A stretch of DNA of 28,332 nucleotides from Gemmatimonadota bacterium. Its GTDB lineage: Bacteria; Latescibacterota; UBA2968; UBA8231. Under the pieces are notes generated by a model. It worked only from the letters and a program-made list of their open reading frames with translations, searched no databases and was not told the DNA's origin. Shown piece after piece: positions 3,606-28,332 of this stretch. A program made the position numbers and the translations under genes. Numbering within the stretch: the first letter of the stretch is position 1; each line of letters begins with the position of its first letter. Location of the stretch: contig JAYOYH010000022.1 in assembly GCA_038153405.1 (NCBI GenBank), positions 1-28,332 of the forward strand, given 5' to 3'.

Positions 3606-5596
3606 GCGTGCTCTCCCTTGTATTTACCCTGCGTGTTTATGCCTAAAAAATCGACCAACGCGTCATTGGTAACGCGCCCGCGCTCAATCTGCAGCGACGC
3701 ATCCTCATAGAGCGCATAGGCGCGCTCGGCCCACGACGTGTCGAACGATTCACCAACGCTATGCAGCAGCAAATCGCACGGCGCCAGCAGCGCCGCCGCA
3801 TTGGGTAGGCCGCCCCCGCATAGAATACCCGGTACGGGTAGTTTGTCTAGATAGTCGCTTGTGCGGTCCGTGGCAAAGCCGTCCGCATCGACGACTAAGC
3901 GCAGACGCCCATCGGCGCTGCACAGGGCGCCGGCCATCAGCAGCCACAGGCCCGCCGTGCCAAAGCCGGCGGCGTTGAGCTGCCGATAGTCGTCTAGCAG
4001 ATGGCGCAGCGCCAGGGCGATATCGCCGATGCGCTCGGCATCATCCGTGCGGTTAAACGTACTGAAAAACGGTGCACTGCCGCGCGGCTTCTCCGGATCC
4101 TGCGGGCCGATATTAGCGCCCGTGCCAAAGGCGTCGATGGCATACACCGTCTGCCCCGCTTCGAGCAGGGCGCGCACGATGGGCGGGTAGAGCGCACCCA
4201 TGCCCTGCGAGTGCACTAGCAGCGTTGCAGATCCCCCGTCGCCGTACGGAGCAAAGCGGCGCACCGGCACCCGCGTTTCGCGCTGTGCGCATACGAACGC
4301 GCCCTCCTGGCAGTCGATACCCTGCCACTGAGTGCTGCGCGCGTCCTCAAATGAAGCGGCCGACGCGCGGTAGCCAATGGCCGTGCGCAGGGCACCGCCC
4401 AGCACGCGGCGGTTTTCCGCCAGCGCCGCCAGCGTCCGCGGCTGGTGCGCAGCAACGTGCGCGCGGGCGGCAACCACGTGCTGGGCGACAAGCGTTTCGT
4501 GATCGGTAAGGGCACCCTCGGGCAGTCCTTCGAAAAAGGCCAGCAGGTGCTCGCGCGGCTCCATCTCATAGGCCGGCTCCTGGAAGTCGGCAGCAACGGG
4601 CAGATCGCAGACGCGACCCAGCCAGCGATAGACCGCCTCGCGCATCGCCTTGTTATAGCCGTGCGGCGCGTCGATTTGCACCTCTTCGACTCGGTCGCCC
4701 GCCCCGTATAGCTCGTAGATCTTTTTGATCGCCGGATACTCGACCTGGGGCGTGTGCGCCGTCCAGTCCTGCGCCGAGGAAACCAGCAGCAGCGGCTTGG
4801 GGGCAATAGTCGCGCCGATGTCGACGTTATTCGTGTCAATGCGCAGCGCCGGCGCATTTTCGCAGATGCATCCGCCCTGCATATAGGCCGAAACCATGCA
4901 CACCGGTGCGGCCGCCGCTAGGCGATCGTCGACGGCGTAGAGGTTGTAGGTCTGCGTGCCACCGCCCGACTCGCCCGTGCAAACCAGTCGCTGCGAATCG
5001 ACCTCGGGCAGCCCCTCGACAAAGTCCAGCGCGCGGATCGCGTTCCACAGCTGCAAGCCGAGAATGGAAAAGTTCCACAGTAGCTGCTCGTCGCCGGAAC
5101 GCTGCCAAAAAGCGCGGTGCACGGCGCCGTAGTCTTCGTCTTGGTAGGCGCCCGACAGGTGACGCGCGCTGTCGTTATAGTCGACCATATCCCACATAAA
5201 GGCCGTGCAGCCGATGCGCGCCAGCGTCAGACCACGTGCCAAATAGGAAGCGGCATCGCTTTCATTGAGGCGGCCTAGTCTCGCATGCCCGTGCGGAGCC
5301 AACACGCCCGGGTGACCACCGGGCTTGGGGTCGAGCGGCCGGAAGAGCGTGCCACCGACGTGGAAATTGGGCAGGCTCTGGAAAGACACCTTCTCGATGC
5401 TGTAGCCGTCGCGCTCGATGCGATCCCAAATGCGCGCATCCAGCGGCGGTTTGTCCGGCATCGGCGCTAGACCCGCGGCAAAGAGCACCTGCTCTCGCAG
5501 GCGTGCGCGCTCAGCCTCCCAGTCGGCGCGACGGGCATAGACCGTGGGAACAAACTCTGCATGCGTATGGGGTATATCCTGCCATCTGGGATCCAC
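3602..5596 (-). CDS. Two-domain alpha/beta-hydrolase (acetyl xylan esterase-like)
   Basis: YSIEKVSFQS, PHGH, GESGGG nucleophile elbow, QGGCICEN, DWT, HGYN; GTG start with AAGGAG RBS. Confidence 0.85.
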   Translation of the reverse strand: MDPRWQDIPHTHAEFVPTVYARRADWEAERARLREQVLFAAGLAPMPDKPPLDARIWDRIERDGYSIEKVSFQSLPNFHVGGTLFRPLDPKPGGHPGVLAPHGHARLGRLNESDAASYLARGLTLARIGCTAFMWDMVDYNDSARHLSGAYQDEDYGAVHRAFWQRSGDEQLLWNFSILGLQLWNAIRALDFVEGLPEVDSQRLVCTGESGGGTQTYNLYAVDDRLAAAAPVCMVSAYMQGGCICENAPALRIDTNNVDIGATIAPKPLLLVSSAQDWTAHTPQVEYPAIKKIYELYGAGDRVEEVQIDAPHGYNKAMREAVYRWLGRVCDLPVAADFQEPAYEMEPREHLLAFFEGLPEGALTDHETLVAQHVVAARAHVAAHQPRTLAALAENRRVLGGALRTAIGYRASAASFEDARSTQWQGIDCQEGAFVCAQRETRVPVRRFAPYGDGGSATLLVHSQGMGALYPPIVRALLEAGQTVYAIDAFGTGANIGPQDPEKPRGSAPFFSTFNRTDDAERIGDIALALRHLLDDYRQLNAAGFGTAGLWLLMAGALCSADGRLRLVVDADGFATDRTSDYLDKLPVPGILCGGGLPNAAALLAPCDLLLHSVGESFDTSWAERAYALYEDASLQIERGRVTNDALVDFLGINTQGKYKGEHA

Positions 5597-5773
5597 GGCA
5601 CTCGCTCCTTTTTTTTGAACGCTTGGGCTGCTACACAGCGCGCACTAAGAAATGCCGAGCGGCGACTGCTGGCAAATGCAATATCGCCACCCGGCACGTG
5701 TTTTACATACCGCGCGTAGCATCTATATTTATCCGCGCGTTTCCACTGCAAAAAACCACTATGCGAGAGTGCC

Positions 5774-6775
5774 ATGCACGCCAACGCCGTCGTATTTACC
5801 GCACCCAACACCGTCGAGTACGCGCCCGTCACCACGCCCGAGCCCGGCCCGGCCGACGTCGTCGTGCGCGTTACCCATTCGTGGATCAGCAACGGGACGG
5901 AAGGATCCTTTCTGCGCGGCGAGCGCATCGAAGGCGATACGCCCTACAGCGGCCAACAAGATCCCTGGCCCTTTCCCATTGTGGCCGGCTACCAGAAAAT
6001 CGGCGTCGTCGAATGGGTCGGTGAACAGATCAAAGACCTAGCCGTCGGCGAAACGGTCTTTGCCACTATGGGCAAGGTCGAGGGCATGTATCGCGAGCGC
6101 GCCGGACAGATTTCGCCGTCCGTTGGCGGGCGCGAGGGCATCTGGAAATTGCCCGACGGCGTCGATCCGCTGGCCTTTGCCGGGCTGGTGCTAACGCAGG
6201 TCGGCTACAATGCCGGCACGCGCCCGCGGCTGGAAATCGGCGACGGTGCCGTCGTCATCGGCGACGGCCTAGTCGGCCAGTGGAGTGCGCAAACGCTGGC
6301 CTGGCGCGGCGCGCAGGTGCTGTTAGTAGGTCGTCACCCAGACCGTCTAGAAAAATTTGCCAACGCGCCCTACTGCCACGTGGTCAACGCGCGCGAAGAA
6401 GACTGGATTGCCAAAGCCAAGGCGCTGTTTCCCAGCGGCGCGCAGGCCGCCGTCGACACCGTTGGCTCTATTGAGGTGATGGAGCAGTTTCAGCAGGTCG
6501 TGCGCCGCTGTGGCCATCTGGTATCGGCGGGTTTTTACGGCACGCAGGACGTGATGGCGCTGCAGCCGCCGCGCTACGGCGAGTACTCCGTCGATCTGGT
6601 ATCCGGCTGGCAGCCGCGGCGCATGGACGAGACGCTGCACCTAATCGCGGCCGGCCACCTGCAAACGCTGCCGCTGATCACGCATCGCTTTCCGGTTGCG
6701 CAGGCGGCCGACGCCTGGGCGCTGATCGAGTCCAAGCGCGAACCGATGCTCGGCGTTATTCTCGACTGGCAATGA
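5774..6775 (+). CDS. MDR-family (zinc-type alcohol dehydrogenase-like) oxidoreductase, probably lacking catalytic Zn
   Basis: GroES-like N-domain with ISNGTE and PIVAGYQ in place of the C..GHE ligands; Rossmann GDGLVG; LITHRFP C-terminus. Confidence 0.85.
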   Translation: MHANAVVFTAPNTVEYAPVTTPEPGPADVVVRVTHSWISNGTEGSFLRGERIEGDTPYSGQQDPWPFPIVAGYQKIGVVEWVGEQIKDLAVGETVFATMGKVEGMYRERAGQISPSVGGREGIWKLPDGVDPLAFAGLVLTQVGYNAGTRPRLEIGDGAVVIGDGLVGQWSAQTLAWRGAQVLLVGRHPDRLEKFANAPYCHVVNAREEDWIAKAKALFPSGAQAAVDTVGSIEVMEQFQQVVRRCGHLVSAGFYGTQDVMALQPPRYGEYSVDLVSGWQPRRMDETLHLIAAGHLQTLPLITHRFPVAQAADAWALIESKREPMLGVILDWQ

Positions 6776-8302: not shown

Positions 8303-9709
8303 CTAGCGCCAGATCCGCCCGATGGCCTCTATCTTATCGTCGCCCAAGTAGCCGTAGCGATTTATCCACACCCCGTCGGCCGCGCTGTCGGCCACTAGCT
8401 GAAGGCGCCGCGCAAAGTCGTCTAGCGGGCCGTAGCCGTGCACCAGCGGCGTGATGGCCATGCCGTCCCCGGCGGCGGCCTTCACCTGGGCGATCTTCCG
8501 CTTCTGCGGCGCGTCGGGCACCGGGTGCGGCTCGTGCGGCTCGGGATAGCCGTAGTCCGATAGGCGCTCTGCCCGAATATCGTCTCCCAAATCAAAGAGC
8601 TGGGCCAGCGCGCGCGTCACCAGCGCCTCGTCGAGGTCGCTGTTGTGCTGCATGAGCACCGAACCCCAAAACTCGACCATCGCCGACCAGTGCATGGTGT
8701 AGAGCTTGGGCGAGGCGGCACTGCAGTAGCGCGCCGCGCGTCCGAAATCAAAGCCCGTACAGAGCGTAAAGGGCGGCATAAAGGCATTGGCCGATAGCTT
8801 CTTGTCCTCGCCGCCGTAGGCCGTCAGCGCCGCGCGCCACTCGCGCAGCATGTCGACCGATAGGTCGGCTTTGAGGCGCAGCCACTCGGCGATGCCGGGG
8901 TGGGCGCGCAGGGCGTTGAGTAGGCTAAAGCGCCCGCGCTCGGGGCCAGCCCAATCCGCCAAGTGCTCGTTGCGCAGCCCGCCGTGTAAAAGCTTGTACA
9001 GATCGCCTACGTCGGCCCTTATGCGGGCAAAATCAACGCCGCGCTCTTCGGCCCAGCGCTCGACGTGGGGGCCAAAGTCCTGAAAGGCCTCGTCCAGCTT
9101 GTAGCAGGGATACTCCGGCCAGTCTGGGCGGAATCCGGTGATTTCCGGGTAGGCGTCCAACAGGTCGCGCACGTAGGCGCGCACGTAGCTGCGCACCGCT
9201 GGGCTGGCCAAGCTAGCGGTATTGGCCATGCGGTTTTTCGGCAGCGAGCCGTCGGGCAGGCGCGGCACGTCTTCTTCCATTAGGCCAGACGGCTGCGCTG
9301 CGCCCACCTGCAGATAGACCTCTAGGCCGGCCGCGCGCGCGGCGCGCACGAAGTCGCCGATGACGTGGCCGTGTTCAGCCGTTAAGTCGTTGGCCCGACG
9401 CGGGCTATAGGGCGTGTCGCGGTAGAATGATTCCGTGGGTTCGTAGCTGGCCCCGCTGCGCACCCACAGGGAGCGCTGGCCCCACAGCGGTCGGTCAAAA
9501 AGGCGCGGCGAACTGCCCGCATCGTCGGGCGGCTGGAACGAGCCCTCGCCCTCGGCGGCCGGTGCCGTCACCGTCGGGTTGCACGCAACGGCGGTGGCAC
9601 CGCACTGTTCCATATTGGCCAATATGCCGTCGACGCCTTCGTTGAGGATATAGTCGCCCAGCACGGTGATGCCCAAAAAGCGGCGCGCTGTCATCGTTTG
9701 CTCACCCAT
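8303..9709 (-). CDS. Uncharacterised protein, probable (beta/alpha)8 glycoside-hydrolase-like fold
   Basis: 468-aa ORF with host-like codon usage; alternating beta/alpha pattern, AGLEVYLQV, SLASPAVRSYVRAYVRDLLDAYPEITGFRPDWPEY, DGVWINRYGY; no signal peptide. Confidence 0.6.
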   Translation of the reverse strand: MGEQTMTARRFLGITVLGDYILNEGVDGILANMEQCGATAVACNPTVTAPAAEGEGSFQPPDDAGSSPRLFDRPLWGQRSLWVRSGASYEPTESFYRDTPYSPRRANDLTAEHGHVIGDFVRAARAAGLEVYLQVGAAQPSGLMEEDVPRLPDGSLPKNRMANTASLASPAVRSYVRAYVRDLLDAYPEITGFRPDWPEYPCYKLDEAFQDFGPHVERWAEERGVDFARIRADVGDLYKLLHGGLRNEHLADWAGPERGRFSLLNALRAHPGIAEWLRLKADLSVDMLREWRAALTAYGGEDKKLSANAFMPPFTLCTGFDFGRAARYCSAASPKLYTMHWSAMVEFWGSVLMQHNSDLDEALVTRALAQLFDLGDDIRAERLSDYGYPEPHEPHPVPDAPQKRKIAQVKAAAGDGMAITPLVHGYGPLDDFARRLQLVADSAADGVWINRYGYLGDDKIEAIGRIWR

Positions 9710-21262: not shown

Positions 21263-22735
21263 TTAAAACGTGCTCTCTTTGGTCGTCATCGAACACCAGC
21301 GCGACGCGTTCAGGTAGTCGATCAGCGCCGCCTGCGCCTCCAGCGTGCCGATGCGCTGCAGCGCCGTGGCGCTGTGACCGCTGACGTAGCGATTGTCCGT
21401 GTCGCGCAGCGCCTCGGCCAAATCGGGCACGGCAGCGGCGGCCCGCTCGCCCAAACGCGCCAAGCCGTAGGCCGCTTCGTAGCGCGTTTGGCCGTCCGCA
21501 TCTTTGAGCAGCGTGCACAGGGCCGGCACGGCGGTATCGGAGGTGCCGCCTAGCGTGCCCAGCGCCTCGGCCGCGTTGCGCCGCACCCATTCGGAATCGT
21601 CGTTGGCCAGGGCCGCCACGCCGCGGGCCGCCTCTTCACCAGAAATAGACCCCATATCGCCCAGGGCAAAGGCGGCAAAGCCGCGGACCGGCTCCTCGCT
21701 CGAGTGCAGGGCGTCGACCAGCGTGGGCACGGCCGTTGCGCCGGTCTGCGCCAAGCCGTGCGCAGCCACTAGGCGAACTTCTTCGCGCTCATCGGACAGC
21801 GCGTCGACTAGGGCGGGCACGGCGCCGCTGCCCAGCGCGCTCATGGCATAGGCAGCGCTGGTGCGCACGGGTTCGCGCTCGTCGCGTAGCGCTGCAGCCA
21901 GATCGTCTATGGCGTCGACGGCCCCCTCGCCCTTAAAGCCCAACGCGCTGACGGCGCGCAGGCGCACGGCCGGGTCGGTGTCCCCCAATTCGGCGCGCAG
22001 CGTCGCGACCGGACGGCCGTTCCCAGCCAACAGCGCACCGCCGCCGCAGTGCCAGTCCCACAGCTTGGCCCACATGAAGTTTTCCTCTTTGTCGCTCCAC
22101 GCCCTGTCGCGACAGTTCCACGTCGGCGCCGTAGGCTCGCTCATGCGGGTGAACTGGAATTTCATCATATAGCGTGTGCGCGGAATCTGACTGGGCATGG
22201 CCCGGTGCCAAATGTCAAAATGCACCAGCGCACAGGTGCCGGCCTCGCCGGTGACCGACTGGTGCACCTCTTCGGCTTCGCTGGCGGCGCGCTGTTCAAA
22301 GCACTGCGTGCCCGGCATTACTCCAGTCGGCCCATTTTCCAGCGGCGTGTCCTGCGGATAGTAAAAGATCATTGCCCAGCGCGTGCGGTGGCTGCGCACC
22401 TTGCGAAAGCCCCAATAGCTGTCTTTGTGCCAACCGCCGCCTTCGTTGGGGCCGCGATTGACGTGGGGGTGGCGGTGCGCGTGCATGACGTAGTCCGGAC
22501 CCAGCACGCTGCTGAGAGCCCCAACAACGACTGGATCGGCAAAGACCTTGCCCAGCTCAGGCACGCGAGGTAGGACGTTGTTGCCCGGGTTGCCCTCCCT
22601 TTCAAAGACCTCTTCCGTGCGCTCGTAAATACGCTGGTGCACATCCGAGGGCAGTTCGGTCTTGAGTTTGACAAAGCCGTTGACGATGAATTCTTTCATC
22701 TGCTCGTCGCTGAGCAAGTAGGTTGGATCGACCAA
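21263..22735 (-). CDS. PhyH-family Fe/2OG dioxygenase fused to C-terminal HEAT (PBS-lyase-type) repeats
   Basis: FIVNGF, WHKD, YYPQD..NGPT, IWHRAM..R, then about six HEAT repeats (VR..AA.ALG). Start placed at TTG 22735 (GGGAGA RBS); the tracked extension to 23332 overlaps the divergent HAD gene. Confidence 0.85.
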   Translation of the reverse strand: MVDPTYLLSDEQMKEFIVNGFVKLKTELPSDVHQRIYERTEEVFEREGNPGNNVLPRVPELGKVFADPVVVGALSSVLGPDYVMHAHRHPHVNRGPNEGGGWHKDSYWGFRKVRSHRTRWAMIFYYPQDTPLENGPTGVMPGTQCFEQRAASEAEEVHQSVTGEAGTCALVHFDIWHRAMPSQIPRTRYMMKFQFTRMSEPTAPTWNCRDRAWSDKEENFMWAKLWDWHCGGGALLAGNGRPVATLRAELGDTDPAVRLRAVSALGFKGEGAVDAIDDLAAALRDEREPVRTSAAYAMSALGSGAVPALVDALSDEREEVRLVAAHGLAQTGATAVPTLVDALHSSEEPVRGFAAFALGDMGSISGEEAARGVAALANDDSEWVRRNAAEALGTLGGTSDTAVPALCTLLKDADGQTRYEAAYGLARLGERAAAAVPDLAEALRDTDNRYVSGHSATALQRIGTLEAQAALIDYLNASRWCSMTTKESTF

Positions 22736-22867
22736 AGCTATACTCTCCCGTTGGACCAATGGTTGGACTAGCCGGAGCACGGCGCACACTGTCGGGTCCG
22801 GTTCGACGCATTGCTCTGCGCAAATAAAATGTATCCCATCGACGGCGACAAGCGCGCCGCCTCCATT

Positions 22868-23716
22868 ATGCCGATATCGCCACTCTACGTATCCGATCTG
22901 GACGGCACGCTGCTGCGCCCCGACGGAACGCTGTCCGAATACAGCCGGATCCATCTCAACCGGCTCATTGCAAACGGGCTGCAGTTCAGCGTTGCGACCG
23001 CGCGCAGCACGGCTTCTATCCGCCAGATCTTGCGCGGCGTCCATCTCTCGCTGCCCGTCGTCAACCTCAACGGCGCGCTGCTTTCCGACCTGCACAGCGG
23101 CCATCACCACGCCATGCACGCGCTGCCGCCCGATCTGTGCGATCGCCTGTGTGCGTGCATGGAAGCCCGCGGTCACAGCCCCTTTGTATCGGTGACGAAC
23201 GGGCAGAGCGATCGCCTGTACTACCGAGGGATATACAACGAGGGCATGCAGTGGTTTGTCGAAGAACGCCAACGCGTTGGCGACCCGCGCCTGAAGCGAG
23301 TCGACGACGTGCACCGCGCTTTTGAAGAGCACGTCCTCGCCCTGACGGTCATCGCCCCTAGCGCGCCAGAAATCGACGCGCTGCGCGCCGACCTGCTGGC
23401 CGAATGCGCCGACTCGGTGCAGGTCTACGTCTTTCCCAACGGCTATTCGGATTTGGGCGATGTGTGGCTGACGGTCTCTGACGGGCGCGCCACCAAAGAT
23501 CGCGGCATTCGCCTGCTGGCCGAACGCGGCGGCTTTGCGCTCGACGAGCTAACCGTGTTCGGCGATGGCGAAAATGATCTGGGAATGTTCGAGATGGCGC
23601 CCAACGCCGTAGCCGTGGCCAATGCCGTGCAGCCCATACGCCAACGGGCTACAGAATGGATCGGCGACCACGGGGAGGATAGCGTCGTGAAGTATTTGCA
23701 GAAGGCATGTGCTTAG
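22868..23716 (+). CDS. Cof-type HAD-IIB hydrolase
   Basis: SDLDGTLL, VATARS, NGA, ATKDRG, FGDGENDLGMF, AVANA. Confidence 0.92.
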   Translation: MPISPLYVSDLDGTLLRPDGTLSEYSRIHLNRLIANGLQFSVATARSTASIRQILRGVHLSLPVVNLNGALLSDLHSGHHHAMHALPPDLCDRLCACMEARGHSPFVSVTNGQSDRLYYRGIYNEGMQWFVEERQRVGDPRLKRVDDVHRAFEEHVLALTVIAPSAPEIDALRADLLAECADSVQVYVFPNGYSDLGDVWLTVSDGRATKDRGIRLLAERGGFALDELTVFGDGENDLGMFEMAPNAVAVANAVQPIRQRATEWIGDHGEDSVVKYLQKACA

Positions 23717-23725
23717 CGCCGCTGC

Positions 23726-26700
23726 TTATTGCACGCCGTTGTTTAGGCCTCCCAGCGGAGACGCAATATCGCGTTCGGAAAACTTGATTTGCACTTTCAC
23801 ATAGGGTCCCCGCGCCCAGTAGGACGCGTTGGACAGTTCGCGATCTTCGCTACCGGCCAGATTATAGCCCAGCGCCAGCCGCGTATTTTTTAGCGCTATA
23901 TAACCGGCTTCTATCGCCGAGCCGTAATTTAGGTTGTCCTGTTCATACTGGTTCAGTATGCGCAGTTCGGCCAGCGTATCCCATCGCTGCGTCCACTCGT
24001 AGCGCAGGTGCGTCGACCAGAGATCTGTCAGGGCTTGTGCCTCTACGCGCCCCGTGCGCACTCTGTTTAGCTTGAAGGTATAGCGCGCATACCACTCCAA
24101 GGATGCCAGTGGTTGGACAATGGTCTCAACGGAGCCGATATGCGATGTTTTTTGCGCGTCGCCCTGCTGGCGCTGGTTGCTTTCCGACTTCAGCTCGTAC
24201 TTGAGAATGGCGTTGATCACATCGTTGCTGTAGGGGCGGTGCGCTAGGCCCAGCGACAGCTGGTGCCGGCGAATGGGCTCCATGCGCGATGTGGTGCGAT
24301 TGAGCTGAGACTCGTCCAAGAATGTGTGCTTGGCCAACATGGACCACGTGCGCGCAATGGACCAATCGCCGGCGCTGGTGATGACCATCTTATCCGTGCT
24401 GCGCCCGTCGCGCCGCTCAAAGCGCGCGCTGGCTTTGAGCGGATCGGCCGGCAAATACTGTGTGGCAATGCTGTAGGCCGTGAAGTCGTTGGCCCCCGTG
24501 CCGCGCAGCGTGCGCATGCGTTCAAAGGTGGTATCAAACGTCCACTCGTCGGTGACGCTATAGCGGTGTTTCAGTCCGACGATGGCCTGATTCTGCTCGC
24601 GGCGCAAACCCGAGTCGAGCTGATAGCGCGCATACATATTTAGGTCTTCGATCAGCGTCGATTCGATGCCCCAATTGGTGTAGCTCGACTTCCACAGGCT
24701 CTCGTCGCGGAACGCGTGTTCCACCACGAATTCCACCTGGTCGCGCAGCTTCCAGCGTCCGTTGATTCTGTTGAGCGTTGGACGGTAGTTGAGCTGCTCG
24801 TCGCCCAGCGTCTGGTCGCGCTCCACGCCCAAGCGCAGGCGCTCGTTAGCCGCCCATTCCAACCCCCCGTTGAGCGTCGTGCTATTGGCGGTGGCAGCAC
24901 CGCCCCCGCTCAGCCGCGTCGACTCAATCGACATAGTCTGCGACACCGCACCCCAATTCATCTGTCCGCTTAGCGAACCGCTGCGCCGCTCCTGACCCGT
25001 CAGGTCGCTGTCCGTCTGATAGGCCTCGCCGACCAACTTGAGGCGATCGGCAACGCGCCAGTGCAGACGACCTCGCACCTTGCGCTCGCCGGGTCGAGCC
25101 GTCGTGCTGCTCGTGTTCAGGTATCGGCCCTGCGCATCGCGGTAATACAACTCGTAGCCGGCACGGCCGCCCAGCGCTCCCTGGCCTTCGACCTTCCAAG
25201 CCCACGCATCTTCCTGGCCGCGCAGGCGCGAACGACCCACTTCGGAAGAGAGGGCCAGCGCGTCGGAAAAGCGCACTCGACCTTCGAGGCCAGCCAGCAG
25301 ATAGTCGCCGCCAGGACGCTCTTCGTTGACGGCCGTCGTGCCCAAGCCCCAGCGCTCCCCTCCATCTAGATACACGTGGGCACCGCTGACCCACTGTTCG
25401 TCAATAACCTGTTTGGTTTCATAGGTCACGACGATAAACTGGGGGTTTTCGTCGGCGTCATAGCTAGCGATAGGACGCTTGAACAAGAGCGTCGCCGCCT
25501 GGTAGTCCACGTCGTAGTCTTTGTAGCGATACTGCCGGCGCTCCTGCAGCACCTTTTCCGGATGCAGGCGATCGCGCACCTGCAGCACCACCTGCTCGCT
25601 GCCCTCGACAATTTCGAGGCGGCGCGCCTGCGCCGACAGATCGTATAAACCCGAGATGCCCTCGCCGCGTATCTGATCGACCTGGGTCGTTTGCTGCGTC
25701 TGGGCAGCGAAGGCGCGCGTGATCAGGCGCTGCGTGCGCGTCTGCGCGCTGACGCCGGTGAATACGCGCTGGTATGACGTGAGCTCGGCCTGAGAAAGGC
25801 GCGTGGCAAAGTCGCCGTACTGCAGGTAGGTCTGGTCGCGTTCCAAGCGAGCGTAGAGCTTGCTCATCGTCGGCGCTTCGTAGAAGATCGAGCTGGCATC
25901 ACCGTATATTGGATACACCTGTTCGGGGCGCAGAAAGCGAAATACCTGGCTGTCGTAATAGCGATCGGAATCGTAGGACGAGGTGAGCAGCCAGCGATCG
26001 CCTAGCGTGCCGCGAGCAAAGTAGGCCAAACGGCCGTTGGCGTAGGCGCCTTCTTCCAAGTCGGCCGCGCCGCTGCTGCCGGCGGGCGCATTTTTGTCGT
26101 TCCACCCGAGCTGACCGTCGGCCATGCCGACGATATTCCATTCCGTCTCGCGCGTGGTGAAGTACAGCGTCTGCGTATCCTCGACCGAACCTGCTCCGAC
26201 GACCAGGCGCGAAGGGCCCGGCTGCGCCGACGGACGGATGCGCAGCACTACCTGACCGTTATCGACCGCTAGCTGGGTGCCTGGCTCGTCTGGAAGCAGG
26301 TCTTCGTTAGCCAACTCGCCGCGTTCCAGCTGCACGGTTACGGCCTGGCCGGCCCCCGCGTTCTTACCCCACGCATCGCGCACGAATACGAAGACTTCGT
26401 GCTGGGCCAGCGTGTCGGCCGGAATGCGCAAGAACGCATCGTCGATCTTCACTTCTGCTACGGGGCCCGCTACGTGCACCTTGACGCTATCGGTCGCGTC
26501 GGGCATGCGCTGCTGCTGCACGACCCACAGCGAGGGCCCCAGCGGCAACTGAACGTCGGCAAAATAGGCGCGACCCGCCCCATCCGTTTGTTGGCTGGCG
26601 ACAATCTGGTCGTTGTGCAGCAGCAGCAGGGTGCTGTTGGCCGCACCCACCGCCTGCACATCGATGCGCTCCTCGACGAGCAGCCTGTCGTGGGGGGGCG

Positions 26701-26806
26701 ATTCGATGCGAACCTCTTGGCCCCACGCCGTCGCGCTGAAAAATGCCGTTAGCGTCGCAAAAAAACCGCGCAAGATCATCGGCAAAGCGTTCCTCGTTGC
26801 CTTCAT
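23726..26806 (-). CDS. Large (~1026 aa) secreted protein with Ig-like N-terminal domains and a predicted large outer-membrane beta-barrel
   Basis: ATG 26806 overlaps the upstream TGA (ATGA) with GGAGG RBS; signal peptide ending ATAWG-Q; GRLAYFARG..LLTSSYDS..YPIYGDAS motif; long run of amphipathic beta-strands ending GPYVKVQIKF. Confidence 0.8.
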   Translation of the reverse strand: MKATRNALPMILRGFFATLTAFFSATAWGQEVRIESPPHDRLLVEERIDVQAVGAANSTLLLLHNDQIVASQQTDGAGRAYFADVQLPLGPSLWVVQQQRMPDATDSVKVHVAGPVAEVKIDDAFLRIPADTLAQHEVFVFVRDAWGKNAGAGQAVTVQLERGELANEDLLPDEPGTQLAVDNGQVVLRIRPSAQPGPSRLVVGAGSVEDTQTLYFTTRETEWNIVGMADGQLGWNDKNAPAGSSGAADLEEGAYANGRLAYFARGTLGDRWLLTSSYDSDRYYDSQVFRFLRPEQVYPIYGDASSIFYEAPTMSKLYARLERDQTYLQYGDFATRLSQAELTSYQRVFTGVSAQTRTQRLITRAFAAQTQQTTQVDQIRGEGISGLYDLSAQARRLEIVEGSEQVVLQVRDRLHPEKVLQERRQYRYKDYDVDYQAATLLFKRPIASYDADENPQFIVVTYETKQVIDEQWVSGAHVYLDGGERWGLGTTAVNEERPGGDYLLAGLEGRVRFSDALALSSEVGRSRLRGQEDAWAWKVEGQGALGGRAGYELYYRDAQGRYLNTSSTTARPGERKVRGRLHWRVADRLKLVGEAYQTDSDLTGQERRSGSLSGQMNWGAVSQTMSIESTRLSGGGAATANSTTLNGGLEWAANERLRLGVERDQTLGDEQLNYRPTLNRINGRWKLRDQVEFVVEHAFRDESLWKSSYTNWGIESTLIEDLNMYARYQLDSGLRREQNQAIVGLKHRYSVTDEWTFDTTFERMRTLRGTGANDFTAYSIATQYLPADPLKASARFERRDGRSTDKMVITSAGDWSIARTWSMLAKHTFLDESQLNRTTSRMEPIRRHQLSLGLAHRPYSNDVINAILKYELKSESNQRQQGDAQKTSHIGSVETIVQPLASLEWYARYTFKLNRVRTGRVEAQALTDLWSTHLRYEWTQRWDTLAELRILNQYEQDNLNYGSAIEAGYIALKNTRLALGYNLAGSEDRELSNASYWARGPYVKVQIKFSERDIASPLGGLNNGVQ

Positions 26807-28332
26807 CGCCCGTCCTCCCTGCCGGCCCCGCCAAGCGGCTCCTCGCACCACATACCCTCCACCTCGTAGTGAACGAACGTCTCCGGCAGTTCACCCGAAG
26901 GGCCATCGACTCGGTACTGCAGCACCAGCCGTGCTCCCGGTGCCACATCGTGCCACACCTTCACGACACGCCCTTCGCTGTGCAGCAGGGATGGGTCGTC
27001 GCCGCCCAGCCCGACCTCTCCACTCCAGTATTCGCCCAAATGCACCAGAGGTAGCGGCTTCAGACCGCGGTATGTCAGTTCAACGGTGCGCGTGCCGCCG
27101 CCCGCTGCCTGCTCGTAAACGGTCCACTGCCACCACGGCTCGGCATCCACCGGCACCGACAGCGTATCGGCTTGTAGCTGGCGCTGCCCCGATTGGGTGC
27201 GCAGAACCGCCGTGAGCACCTCTTGGCCCGCCCGGCGTTCGGCAACGCGTATCGTCGCCTGCTGGCGCAGGGTGTCGGGCGAACTGATCGACCACGAATT
27301 CGCATCTCCCTCGCTTTCCAGCGCCAGCGTTGCATCCCGCTGGACGAGCGACGGGCGCGCGCTCTGGGCCTCCATTTCCCATACCCACCGCGAACCAATG
27401 CGCGCAACCACACCCTGGCCTGCCGCCGACGTATCCGCCTCGGCGTAGCCGGCAACCCAGCGATCGGCCAACGGCGATGCATCGAGCAAGTGCCAGTTCA
27501 GACCCGAGGCCATTGGCGGTAACCAATCGTTCATATCCTCAATCCGACCGGCTGCGCGGACCACGTCGCTGTCGCGCGGCTGCAAGGTGCGCTCGATCGG
27601 CGTTGGATAGCCTGTTTTTAGACCCTGCACCAAGTCGATAGAACGCCGCTCGGCGGGCGCGTAGGTAACGAGATTCAATGCGTGCATTTGCGGGGCAACA
27701 AACTCGACCTCCACGCGGCGATTGCGCGCGCGACCATCCTCTGTGGCGTTGTCGGCTAGTGGGCGCTCGTCGCCGTAGCTAACGGTACTCAGCTGCGATG
27801 GACGAACCCCCAGTGCCACCAGTGCGTCGACTACACCCTGCGCGCGCGCCAGGGCTAGTGTGCTGTTGTCGGCGTGCGAGTGCGTCGGTCGCTGCGCATC
27901 GGCATGGCCTTCGACGACCGCGCTTAATGCCGGAGTGGACAGCAGCGGTGCCGCAATCTCACTCAGCGTGCGACGGGCCTCGTCGCTAGCAGCATCCACA
28001 CCGCTGGCAAAGTGCAATAGGCGCTTCTCAGGCCACTGTATGGCCACTTCTACGCGGCGATTCTTAGCGCGCCCAGTCTCGGTGGCGTTGTCGGCCGCAG
28101 GCTGGCTCGCACCGCGCCCGACCACTTCTATGCGATCAGCCGCCACGCCGCGCCACTGCAGTTTCTGCGCGATGGTCGCTGCACGGTCCGTGCTCAGGTC
28201 TCGGTTGTCGTAATACTGCGCGTTGAAGATGGGCTCGGAGTCGGTGTGCCCCTCCAGGCGCACGCGCGCAGCCGGCAGGTCGGACAGATACTCGGCCAGT
28301 GCGTCAATGCGCGGTCTGTCCTCGCGCCCGAC
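26803..28332 (-). CDS. Multi-domain protein with tandem OmpA C-like peptidoglycan-binding domains (3' part; 5' end beyond the window)
   Basis: Frame open from 28332. Two OmpA_C domains: EGHTDS..N..LS..RA..GRG...P.ADNAT..GRAKNRRVEV and EGHADA..N..LA..RA..SYGDERPLADNAT..GRARNRRVEV; beta-rich C-terminal region. Confidence 0.9.
   Translation of the reverse strand, partial: VGREDRPRIDALAEYLSDLPAARVRLEGHTDSEPIFNAQYYDNRDLSTDRAATIAQKLQWRGVAADRIEVVGRGASQPAADNATETGRAKNRRVEVAIQWPEKRLLHFASGVDAASDEARRTLSEIAAPLLSTPALSAVVEGHADAQRPTHSHADNSTLALARAQGVVDALVALGVRPSQLSTVSYGDERPLADNATEDGRARNRRVEVEFVAPQMHALNLVTYAPAERRSIDLVQGLKTGYPTPIERTLQPRDSDVVRAAGRIEDMNDWLPPMASGLNWHLLDASPLADRWVAGYAEADTSAAGQGVVARIGSRWVWEMEAQSARPSLVQRDATLALESEGDANSWSISSPDTLRQQATIRVAERRAGQEVLTAVLRTQSGQRQLQADTLSVPVDAEPWWQWTVYEQAAGGGTRTVELTYRGLKPLPLVHLGEYWSGEVGLGGDDPSLLHSEGRVVKVWHDVAPGARLVLQYRVDGPSGELPETFVHYEVEGMWCEEPLGGAGREDGR

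Follow-up and report, generated by a model that had tools for sequence, protein, structure and literature searches.

A giant adhesin-like chain and the gene that overlaps it

The window analysed here spans positions 1 to 28,332 of contig C22 (66,336 bases in all) of the source genome, G000, and ends at a run of N that marks an assembly gap; other G codes denote the genomes of relatives and L codes denote loci taken from them. Its far end carries two overlapping genes, one for a giant adhesin-like protein, of which the window holds the C-terminal part, and one for a protein predicted to form a very large outer-membrane β-barrel. It is well supported that these genes represent a conserved barrel–adhesin module that lies outside every family tested.

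23726-26806, minus strand: barrel gene, an open reading frame of 1,026 amino acids from ATG, with an alternative in-frame GTG start at 26851
26803-26806, minus strand: ATGA stop/start overlap, with a GGGAGG ribosome-binding-like motif just upstream
26803-28332, minus strand: C-terminal 509 amino acids of the giant adhesin-like gene (whole gene C22 38924-26803, the remainder beyond the window)
28036-28332, minus strand: third OmpA-like domain, cut off by the edge of the window (residues 1-99 of the piece; PF00691 match)
27697-28023, minus strand: fourth OmpA-like domain, complete (residues 104-212 of the piece), with a GHxD...LxxxRA motif (PF00691 match and fold)
26806-27696, minus strand: lineage-specific tail, a segment of about 185 amino acids of unclear fold followed by a β-sandwich of about 100 amino acids (no family match)

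The TGA of the upstream frame (26803-26805) shares the ATGA with the ATG of the barrel gene (minus strand, ...GGGAGGACGGGCG-ATGA-AGGC...), as had been read in the first-pass annotation of this DNA. An identical four-nucleotide overlap is present in G002, G004 and a Phyllobacterium plasmid, and translation of the adhesin and barrel genes is probably coupled through it.

Beyond the window, the adhesin gene continues in three further pieces split by 100-N gaps, of a kind that occurs 40 times in the assembly. The 2,129-residue piece has a signal-like start and an N-terminal domain without a match, together with 10-11 Big_9/tandem-95 repeats and three DUF11 domains, the 839-residue piece has Big_1, a CarboxypepD_reg-like domain and two DUF11 domains, and the 457-residue piece has DUF11, SdrD-B-like and OmpA domains. 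Public contigs close the gaps with 741 and 338 bases and with a joint that removes 155, keeping the frame at all three gaps, so that the bridged gene measures 12,846 nt and encodes 4,281 amino acids from the GTG at 38924. The two fillings are likely to be free of stop codons, judging from G001, G002, G004 and G125, the ungapped frames of which stay open for at least 1,363, 2,244, 2,305 and 2,205 amino acids (values listed as a set) up to the same overlap and contain four OmpA domains each. The resulting chain is composed of a tip domain, at least 18 immunoglobulin (Ig)-like domains (Big_9 and DUF11/CLIPPER), an SdrD-B-like module, four OmpA domains and the tail. The separate cell-wall-anchored OmpA subunit envisaged by the first-pass annotation thus dissolves into the C-terminal part of an Ig-repeat protein of about 4,280 residues; Ig sequence does lie upstream, as it had expected, but belongs to the same chain as the OmpA domains and not to a separate cargo gene.

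The CLIPPER (DUF11) domains score above the Pfam cut-off, and three of the six seen in G000 carry the Lys/Asp/Asn triad, while the three nearest the base are devoid of the Lys. Passages of two reports describe an isopeptide bond formed by this triad in an Acinetobacter CLIPPER domain (10.1101/2025.04.25.650565; PMC10952558). No RTX Pfam match was found in the giant adhesin, nor any transporter gene among the flanking open reading frames read. An Ig-like domain measures about 4 nm, and at least 18 of them would form a stalk of no less than about 70 nm, more than a periplasm could accommodate. In a close strain (L001:16291-16350, C22 ~38300) substitutions and insertions cluster in the tip-domain region and the coverage of two other sequencing runs falls over the 5′ end of the gene, hinting at a variable adhesive tip.

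The 509-residue piece matches Pfam PF00691 over two stretches (E 8e-34, 116 bits against a cut-off of 27.2); at least two complete OmpA_C domains had been claimed here, of which the two matched stretches stand, but only one domain is complete within the window. The conserved Asp/Arg motif is retained in all three visible OmpA domains, and the fold of the fourth gives template-modelling (TM) scores of 0.8-0.9, on target length, to the domains of Pal, OmpA and OprF. OmpA_C domains bind peptidoglycan, and from their sequence the four domains near the adhesin end are likely to bind the cell wall. The tails of four homologues contain no type 9 secretion system (T9SS) sorting domain and gave no Pfam or NCBIfam match at E 1.

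The barrel protein, its family and its probable relation to SprA

23777-26137, minus strand: barrel domain, residues 224-1010, 38 predicted strands (AlphaFold model)
26720-26806, minus strand: predicted Sec signal peptide, residues 1-29 (by eye; helix 7-24 in the model and a cleavage-like site between AWG and Q)
26147-26719, minus strand: two Ig-like domains, residues 30-220, predicted periplasmic and invasin D3/Big_1-like (model and homologue matches)
25859-26035, minus strand: region with the family signature GRLA...LLTSSYD...YPIYGDAS (motif at residues 258-305, conserved in the family) and the conserved loop 280-316
25397-25696, minus strand: β-insert of about 100 amino acids between strands 7 and 8, predicted on the outside face, carrying an L.R..DY.VD...G.L.F motif common to SprA
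24221-24223, minus strand: Asp862, located in the turn that joins strands 30 and 31 on the periplasmic side, co-varying with an Asn/Asp of the partner SdrD-B-like module (C22 ~28969, outside the window)

In the barrel protein a signal peptide is followed by two Ig domains, predicted to be periplasmic, then by an outer-membrane β-barrel of 38 predicted strands and finally by a short C-terminal helix, according to an AlphaFold model (pLDDT 79.8, pTM 0.66) whose strands were counted by hand from DSSP. The first-pass annotation had anticipated the Sec signal, the Ig-like segments and the long β-strand region, and had named a GRLA...LLT..YD...YP.YGD.S signature; all of these are found, the signature at residues 258-305. 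The hydropathy of the N-terminal signal stays below the transmembrane level, with no 19-residue window above 1.6 on the Kyte–Doolittle scale. Invasin_D3 and Big_1 matches occur in 19/37 and 12/37 barrel homologues, respectively, and structure matches to intimin, invasin and glycoside hydrolase family 2 Ig domains span residues 28-220 of the model. The connections between strands alternate between short turns after even strands (mean 3.2) and longer loops after odd strands (mean 13.4), several strands being short or weakly amphipathic, and both barrel termini are predicted to lie in the periplasm. The conserved loop 280-316, which falls within the signature region, is of low confidence in the monomer model. 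The Cα diameter is predicted to be about 66-72 Å, wide enough for folded Ig domains.

The protein has no Pfam or NCBIfam family match and no PDB family fits it. Its top Foldseek matches are Deinococcus SlpA proteins, generic in nature (TM 0.21-0.23); usher, PapC_N and PapC_C Pfam families are absent from 37 members of the barrel family, and no autotransporter, Omp85, POTRA or two-partner secretion (TPS) match was obtained. It is hardly credible that the protein is a common nutrient channel of large size, or a TonB-dependent receptor, that lies beside an adhesin gene by chance. Several plasmid homologues carry the database name 'TonB-dependent receptor' and a weak PDB sequence match to such a receptor exists (E 0.009), but 38 strands are predicted instead of 22, there is no N-terminal plug, the TonB barrel Pfam family is matched by one of the 37 members (E 0.0014), and both fusion and co-variation tie the barrel to a DUF11 partner. 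The expectation that this would be a large barrel unlike TonB-dependent receptors or porins is therefore upheld by structure prediction, Foldseek and Pfam.

A profile of the barrel retrieves 6,330 clusters when the cut-off is E<=0.001, of which 2,905 also pass E<=1e-30. Barrel genes are present in 17 of 168 genomes of the phylum and in 24 plasmid records from Proteobacteria and Cyanobacteria, and the pairing with an adhesin recurs in Acinetobacter, rhizobia and cyanobacteria. Of the 194 homologues matched almost in full, 114 carry more than 350 fused residues upstream, in keeping with the first-pass statement that the family is often fused; in 113 of these 114 a CLIPPER domain and then an SdrD-B-like module precede the barrel, while OmpA occurs in 10 (four before and six after the barrel). 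Co-occurrence with OmpA and Ig-domain genes, also foreseen, hence holds for the CLIPPER domain and the module, but OmpA is not a conserved partner. The same CLIPPER–module arrangement lies before the barrel in all four plasmid loci examined. When metagenome loci were picked by the module, blind to the barrel, a barrel lay within ~2.5 kb in 8/8 loci at ~70 bits or more and in 0/70 weaker SdrD-B loci, the module profile having itself been built from barrel-linked sequences.

The two-gene format is found in G000, G001, G002, G004, G125 and Phyllobacterium, and a four- or five-gene format with tip, small and major DUF11 subunits in G013, G063, G065 and G118. In G092, stalk, SdrD-like module, OmpA and barrel share one frame of at least 3,314 amino acids; the base protein of G118 ends right after the SdrD-like module, in an operon without OmpA. 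Searching the G000 genome by tblastn, with G013's tip protein and its small and major DUF11 proteins as queries, revealed no separate gene for any of them, the matches being confined to the giant gene, so that the operon consists of two genes, with cargo and wall anchor in one chain. Three observations concern the multi-gene loci. A small single-CLIPPER gene (L016:8589-9278, L042:8385-8939, L044:9172-9750, L046:8846-9427), absent from the two-gene form, is a candidate chaperone, adaptor or cap. A single TAG interrupts the fused barrel gene of G063 near barrel position 300 (L046:17029-17108). Directly upstream of the DUF11 operon of G013, two tandem genes (L016:4939-5343 and 5494-5895) encode, by eye, a near-canonical ubiquitin with a signal peptide as well as a PEP-CTERM-like anchor at the C terminus.

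The multi-gene operons also suggest how the stalk is divided. In all nine of their tip and major subunits the sequence breaks off at position 95 of the 142-position CLIPPER model, with the Asp kept in 8/9 and the Lys in most (by eye), and 55/102 fused N-termini match the missing last third of the domain, which holds the Asn (10 shuffles gave 0-1), against 2/72 stand-alone barrels. The continuous CLIPPER–base junction of the two-gene genomes aligns with the free N-terminus of the split base proteins at exactly that strand (98.9%), and the first domain of the giant adhesin resembles the tip domain of G013 (E 4e-7), so that the G000 protein looks like a fusion of tip and base. The sequences thus suggest that the relatives assemble the stalk from individual subunits, each supplying what the final CLIPPER domain of another lacks, and that in G000 these would be pre-joined in one chain. 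As a fusion made by nature, the two-gene locus would then show in which order (tip, stalk, base) the subunits of the multi-gene versions are arranged, and it is the simplest form of the system.

The N-terminal part of the barrel is remotely related, as far as sequence profiles tell, to SprA, the translocon of the T9SS, through a bridging family of outer-membrane proteins of about 1,000 amino acids from the same class, which matches both profiles. The barrel and the bridging family are related with an HH probability of 99.0% (E 3e-18, 260 columns), and the bridging family and SprA with 96.1% (E 3e-9, 322 columns), compared with at most 0.16% in 4+4 column shuffles; the bridge spans about a dozen strands, limiting transitive homology to the N-terminal third of the barrel. 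Direct profile comparison with SprA gave 56% for the insert alone and 41% for the insert plus three strands (at most 3.8% in 20 shuffles), and the insert motif occurs at one place in 20/21 SprA sequences, with weak scores. The bridging family itself, without a family name, was seen at 18 loci of the class (L049:8210-11200, L050:4383-7529, L051:8621-11662 and L163-L177) and contains two copies of the SprA-type insert motif.

The possibility that the barrel is SprA itself was rejected, since neither it nor 36 homologues match TIGR04189 at E 0.05 and the true SprA of the host lies elsewhere (G000:C29:30049-38331; L020, L021), in a 2,133-residue frame that scores 485 bits, above the TIGR04189 cut-off. 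As a separate observation, SprA above the cut-off in 31/31 genomes sampled of the class of the host, together with T9SS-like C-terminal domains recognized by eye (C22 49244-51586), points to a type 9 system outside Bacteroidota.

Probable contact between module and barrel, and how the stalk may reach the surface

Co-variation in 132 module/barrel pairs singles out Asn109 of the SdrD-B-like module and Asp862 of the barrel, which occur as D/N in 63 pairs, N/D in 36, D/D in 11 and N/N in one. This pair scores a z of 8.5 by average-product-corrected mutual information (MI-APC) and is the top pair in mean-field direct coupling analysis; its own z falls to 0.9 after near-neighbour re-pairing, and the maximum z in such controls (n=30) is 5.9-8.2. 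The reciprocal Asn/Asp swap is seen in 10/15 closest pairs that differ at the module site, as opposed to 4/48 that do not, recurs 15-18 times on the tree and yields a median p of 0.016, uncorrected, in an independent-pairs sign test. None of 25 other D/N-rich barrel columns tested exhibits this pattern. The swap points to direct contact between the module and the periplasmic rim of the barrel: with Asp862 in a periplasmic turn, the last strand of the module is placed at the inner rim, where the chain runs on to the OmpA domains. Two weaker pairs, D66-Q1006 (strand 38; p 0.03) and R48-F308 (loop 280-316; p 0.06), would place the module inside the pore, Q1006 being polar and probably lumen-facing and F308 lying in an outer loop.

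A chain whose OmpA domains are periplasmic and whose stalk is this long must cross the outer membrane. Because the module appears to touch the barrel, and because the barrel is predicted to be wide enough and appears related to a protein translocon, passage through the barrel is the simplest reading, and export by this route is likely. On balance, the two genes are rather more apt than not to form a self-contained export-and-anchor system, in which the barrel exports the giant adhesin stalk and keeps its base threaded while the OmpA domains clamp it to peptidoglycan. Sec would carry both proteins across the inner membrane, and the β-barrel assembly machinery (BAM) would presumably insert the barrel. 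The N-terminal ~3,240 residues of the adhesin would exit tip first as folded or folding domains, three of them with the Lys/Asp/Asn triad, until binding of the SdrD-B-like module to the barrel halts passage; the four OmpA domains would remain inside and clamp the chain to peptidoglycan. Folding outside the cell, isopeptide locking or calcium binding could serve as a ratchet.

Several points weigh against this proposal. Of the 132 pairs, 114 come from fused proteins, where the contact is intramolecular; the co-varying pairs were picked after scanning ~80,000 column pairs, with p values uncorrected; and the D66-Q1006 signal is mostly due to phylogeny, its z being 6.4 in the control. The best-supported contact, at the periplasmic rim, also fits docking without threading, and the placement of the stalk within the pore is a prediction from sequence. 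Closure and lumen width of the barrel derive from DSSP and geometry, and co-variation across the seam between strands 1 and 38 is weak (3.23), with 25/665 non-adjacent strand pairs scoring as high. Direct SprA homology is modest (41-56%), and the shared motif is promiscuous, matching a phage distal-tail family weakly too. The insert lies on the outside face and, according to part of PMC10994853, the SprA pore is capped there with a lateral exit, so that the pore of the barrel may also be closed on top. The two-gene operon encodes no motor and no evident energy source.

The rim contact and the presence of SprA in G000, as in all sampled genomes of its class, agree with a barrel that acts solely as an anchor, a docking socket for the SdrD-B-like module, while the stalk surfaces by another route (the type 9 translocon of the host) or through vesicle release; part of PMC9143113 describes a separate outer-membrane partner that anchors type B T9SS cargo. 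This seems unlikely, however, given the tails devoid of a T9SS sorting domain, the full fusion in G092 and the pairing in Acinetobacter, rhizobia and cyanobacteria. To our knowledge these last organisms are without a T9SS. Moreover, the contact lies on the periplasmic side, so that a stalk exported while its OmpA domains stay in the periplasm has to pass through the membrane at that point in any case.

The genes are patchy and plasmid-borne, unlike those of a core tether, and 104/114 fused homologues have no OmpA. Both facts make it decidedly unlikely that the giant protein is a periplasmic envelope scaffold tying the outer membrane, via the barrel as a structural root or large passive pore, to peptidoglycan in the manner of SlpA/OmpM. 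The four OmpA domains, the rim contact and the SlpA proteins at the head of the Foldseek matches would suit such a scaffold, but those matches are generic, and stalk length and CLIPPER/Big_9 content fit the fibrillar adhesins portrayed in passages of 10.1101/2025.04.25.650565.

A further alternative, differing from threading mainly in the exit path, is gated export through an opening in the side of the barrel, after the manner of SprA: here the insert would cap the pore, the stalk would leave sideways and the barrel might secrete other proteins of the cell too. The homology to SprA extends over the insert and the strands next to it, a number of strands are short or of weak amphipathic character, and SprA itself has a cap and a lateral opening in the portion of PMC10994853 concerned. 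Against this, the loci inspected show neither a PorV-like carrier gene nor a motor gene next to the barrel and one barrel pairs with one dedicated DUF11 partner, and such a gate is rated as quite improbable.

Returning to export through the barrel, a bolder formulation, for which the chances are judged slightly less than even, is that the barrel constitutes a new secretion class: a relative of SprA with 38 strands and no motor, exceeding in size all single-chain barrels solved so far, it would pass Ig chains that are folded and locked covalently across the outer membrane. It would act as a pilus assembler (of split CLIPPER subunits, with probably intermolecular isopeptide bonds) or, here, export one adhesin of 4,280 residues and serve as its socket, and may be a simple ancestor or an offshoot of the type 9 translocon.

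Comparison with known systems, and neighbouring genes

The ushers FimD and PapC of chaperone–usher pili have 24 strands and a lumenal plug. The present barrel differs from them in its 38 predicted strands, outside insert and absence of usher Pfam families from the 37 members. No PapD-like chaperone gene accompanies it, the G000 operon having two genes only and that of G013 having none; the subunits are CLIPPER domains, probably locked covalently to judge by their triads, and in G000 the fibre is a single chain. The split-domain register of the relatives may reflect donor-strand complementation, whereas the G000 chain is continuous. Type V secretion (autotransporters, two-partner secretion and inverse autotransporters) shares with the present system, as predicted here, Sec export, a dedicated barrel beside or fused to its passenger, a passenger that is N-terminal in the fused forms and periplasmic Ig domains resembling those of invasin and intimin. 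Type V barrels have 12 or 16 strands, in contrast to the 38 predicted here, where autotransporter, Omp85, POTRA and TPS matches are lacking and periplasmic OmpA domains stand between passenger and barrel. LapA and MpIBP are giant adhesins that leave by type 1 secretion and possess a retention module; a periplasmic stopper keeps their very long Ig/cadherin-like stalk threaded in an outer-membrane pore. Here the stopper would be C-terminal (opposite polarity), the signal looks Sec-type, there is no RTX Pfam match and no ABC transporter or TolC gene lies in the operon.

Like SprA/Sov (TIGR04189; PDB 8GL6), the barrel appears to be a single-chain giant handling protein cargo, with remote homology over the insert and adjoining strands. 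It has half the length (SprA has ~2,000 or more amino acids) and 38 predicted strands as opposed to 36, the extracellular cap and lateral opening of SprA being described in the same part of PMC10994853 as this count. It further differs from SprA in having a partner without a sorting domain, no adjacent carrier or motor gene, one dedicated and often fused partner, and an occurrence outside T9SS phyla. SprA is called the largest known barrel in a passage of a 2026 preprint (10.64898/2026.03.07.710327); a 38-strand barrel would exceed it and would link the type 9 translocon to a family spread across many phyla.

The CLIPPER (DUF11) fibrillar adhesins, such as Acinetobacter silvestris B9T28_05395, share a tip, a CLIPPER/cadherin-like stalk, a C-terminal OmpA domain and the Lys-Asp-Asn triad with the giant adhesin, according to passages of 10.1101/2025.04.25.650565 and PMC10952558. 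The word 'barrel' is absent from the main text of both, and those passages are silent on how the stalk crosses the outer membrane. Three Deinococcus radiodurans proteins are predicted as 38-stranded barrels, and mentioned without a function, in part of PMC9388160; they share the predicted strand number and may belong to the present family. No paper was found that joins DUF11/OmpA adhesins to 38-stranded barrels, each having been published separately in the portions consulted, and Table S3 of PMC9388160 may name family members. The barrel–adhesin pairing seems to be a mode of surface-fibre display not described before, and would provide an export route to the many DUF11/OmpA fibrillar adhesins of Gram-negative bacteria, in which the OmpA 'anchor' is periplasmic and the stalk must be outside.

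The sequencing runs that hold the DNA of the locus are mostly marine or estuarine. The 5′ side of the giant gene is an intergenic stretch followed by unrelated genes; just upstream of its promoter region, a small AbrB/MazE-like gene was noted by eye (G000:C22:39252-39947), possibly part of a toxin–antitoxin module. Elsewhere in the window, a 468-residue frame without any Pfam match lies amid sugar-catabolism genes (8303-9709, minus strand), and a PhyH-family dioxygenase domain is fused to HEAT repeats (21263-23332, minus strand). The true start of this last gene is probably downstream of the listed GTG, because the frame overlaps an opposite-strand HAD hydrolase gene.

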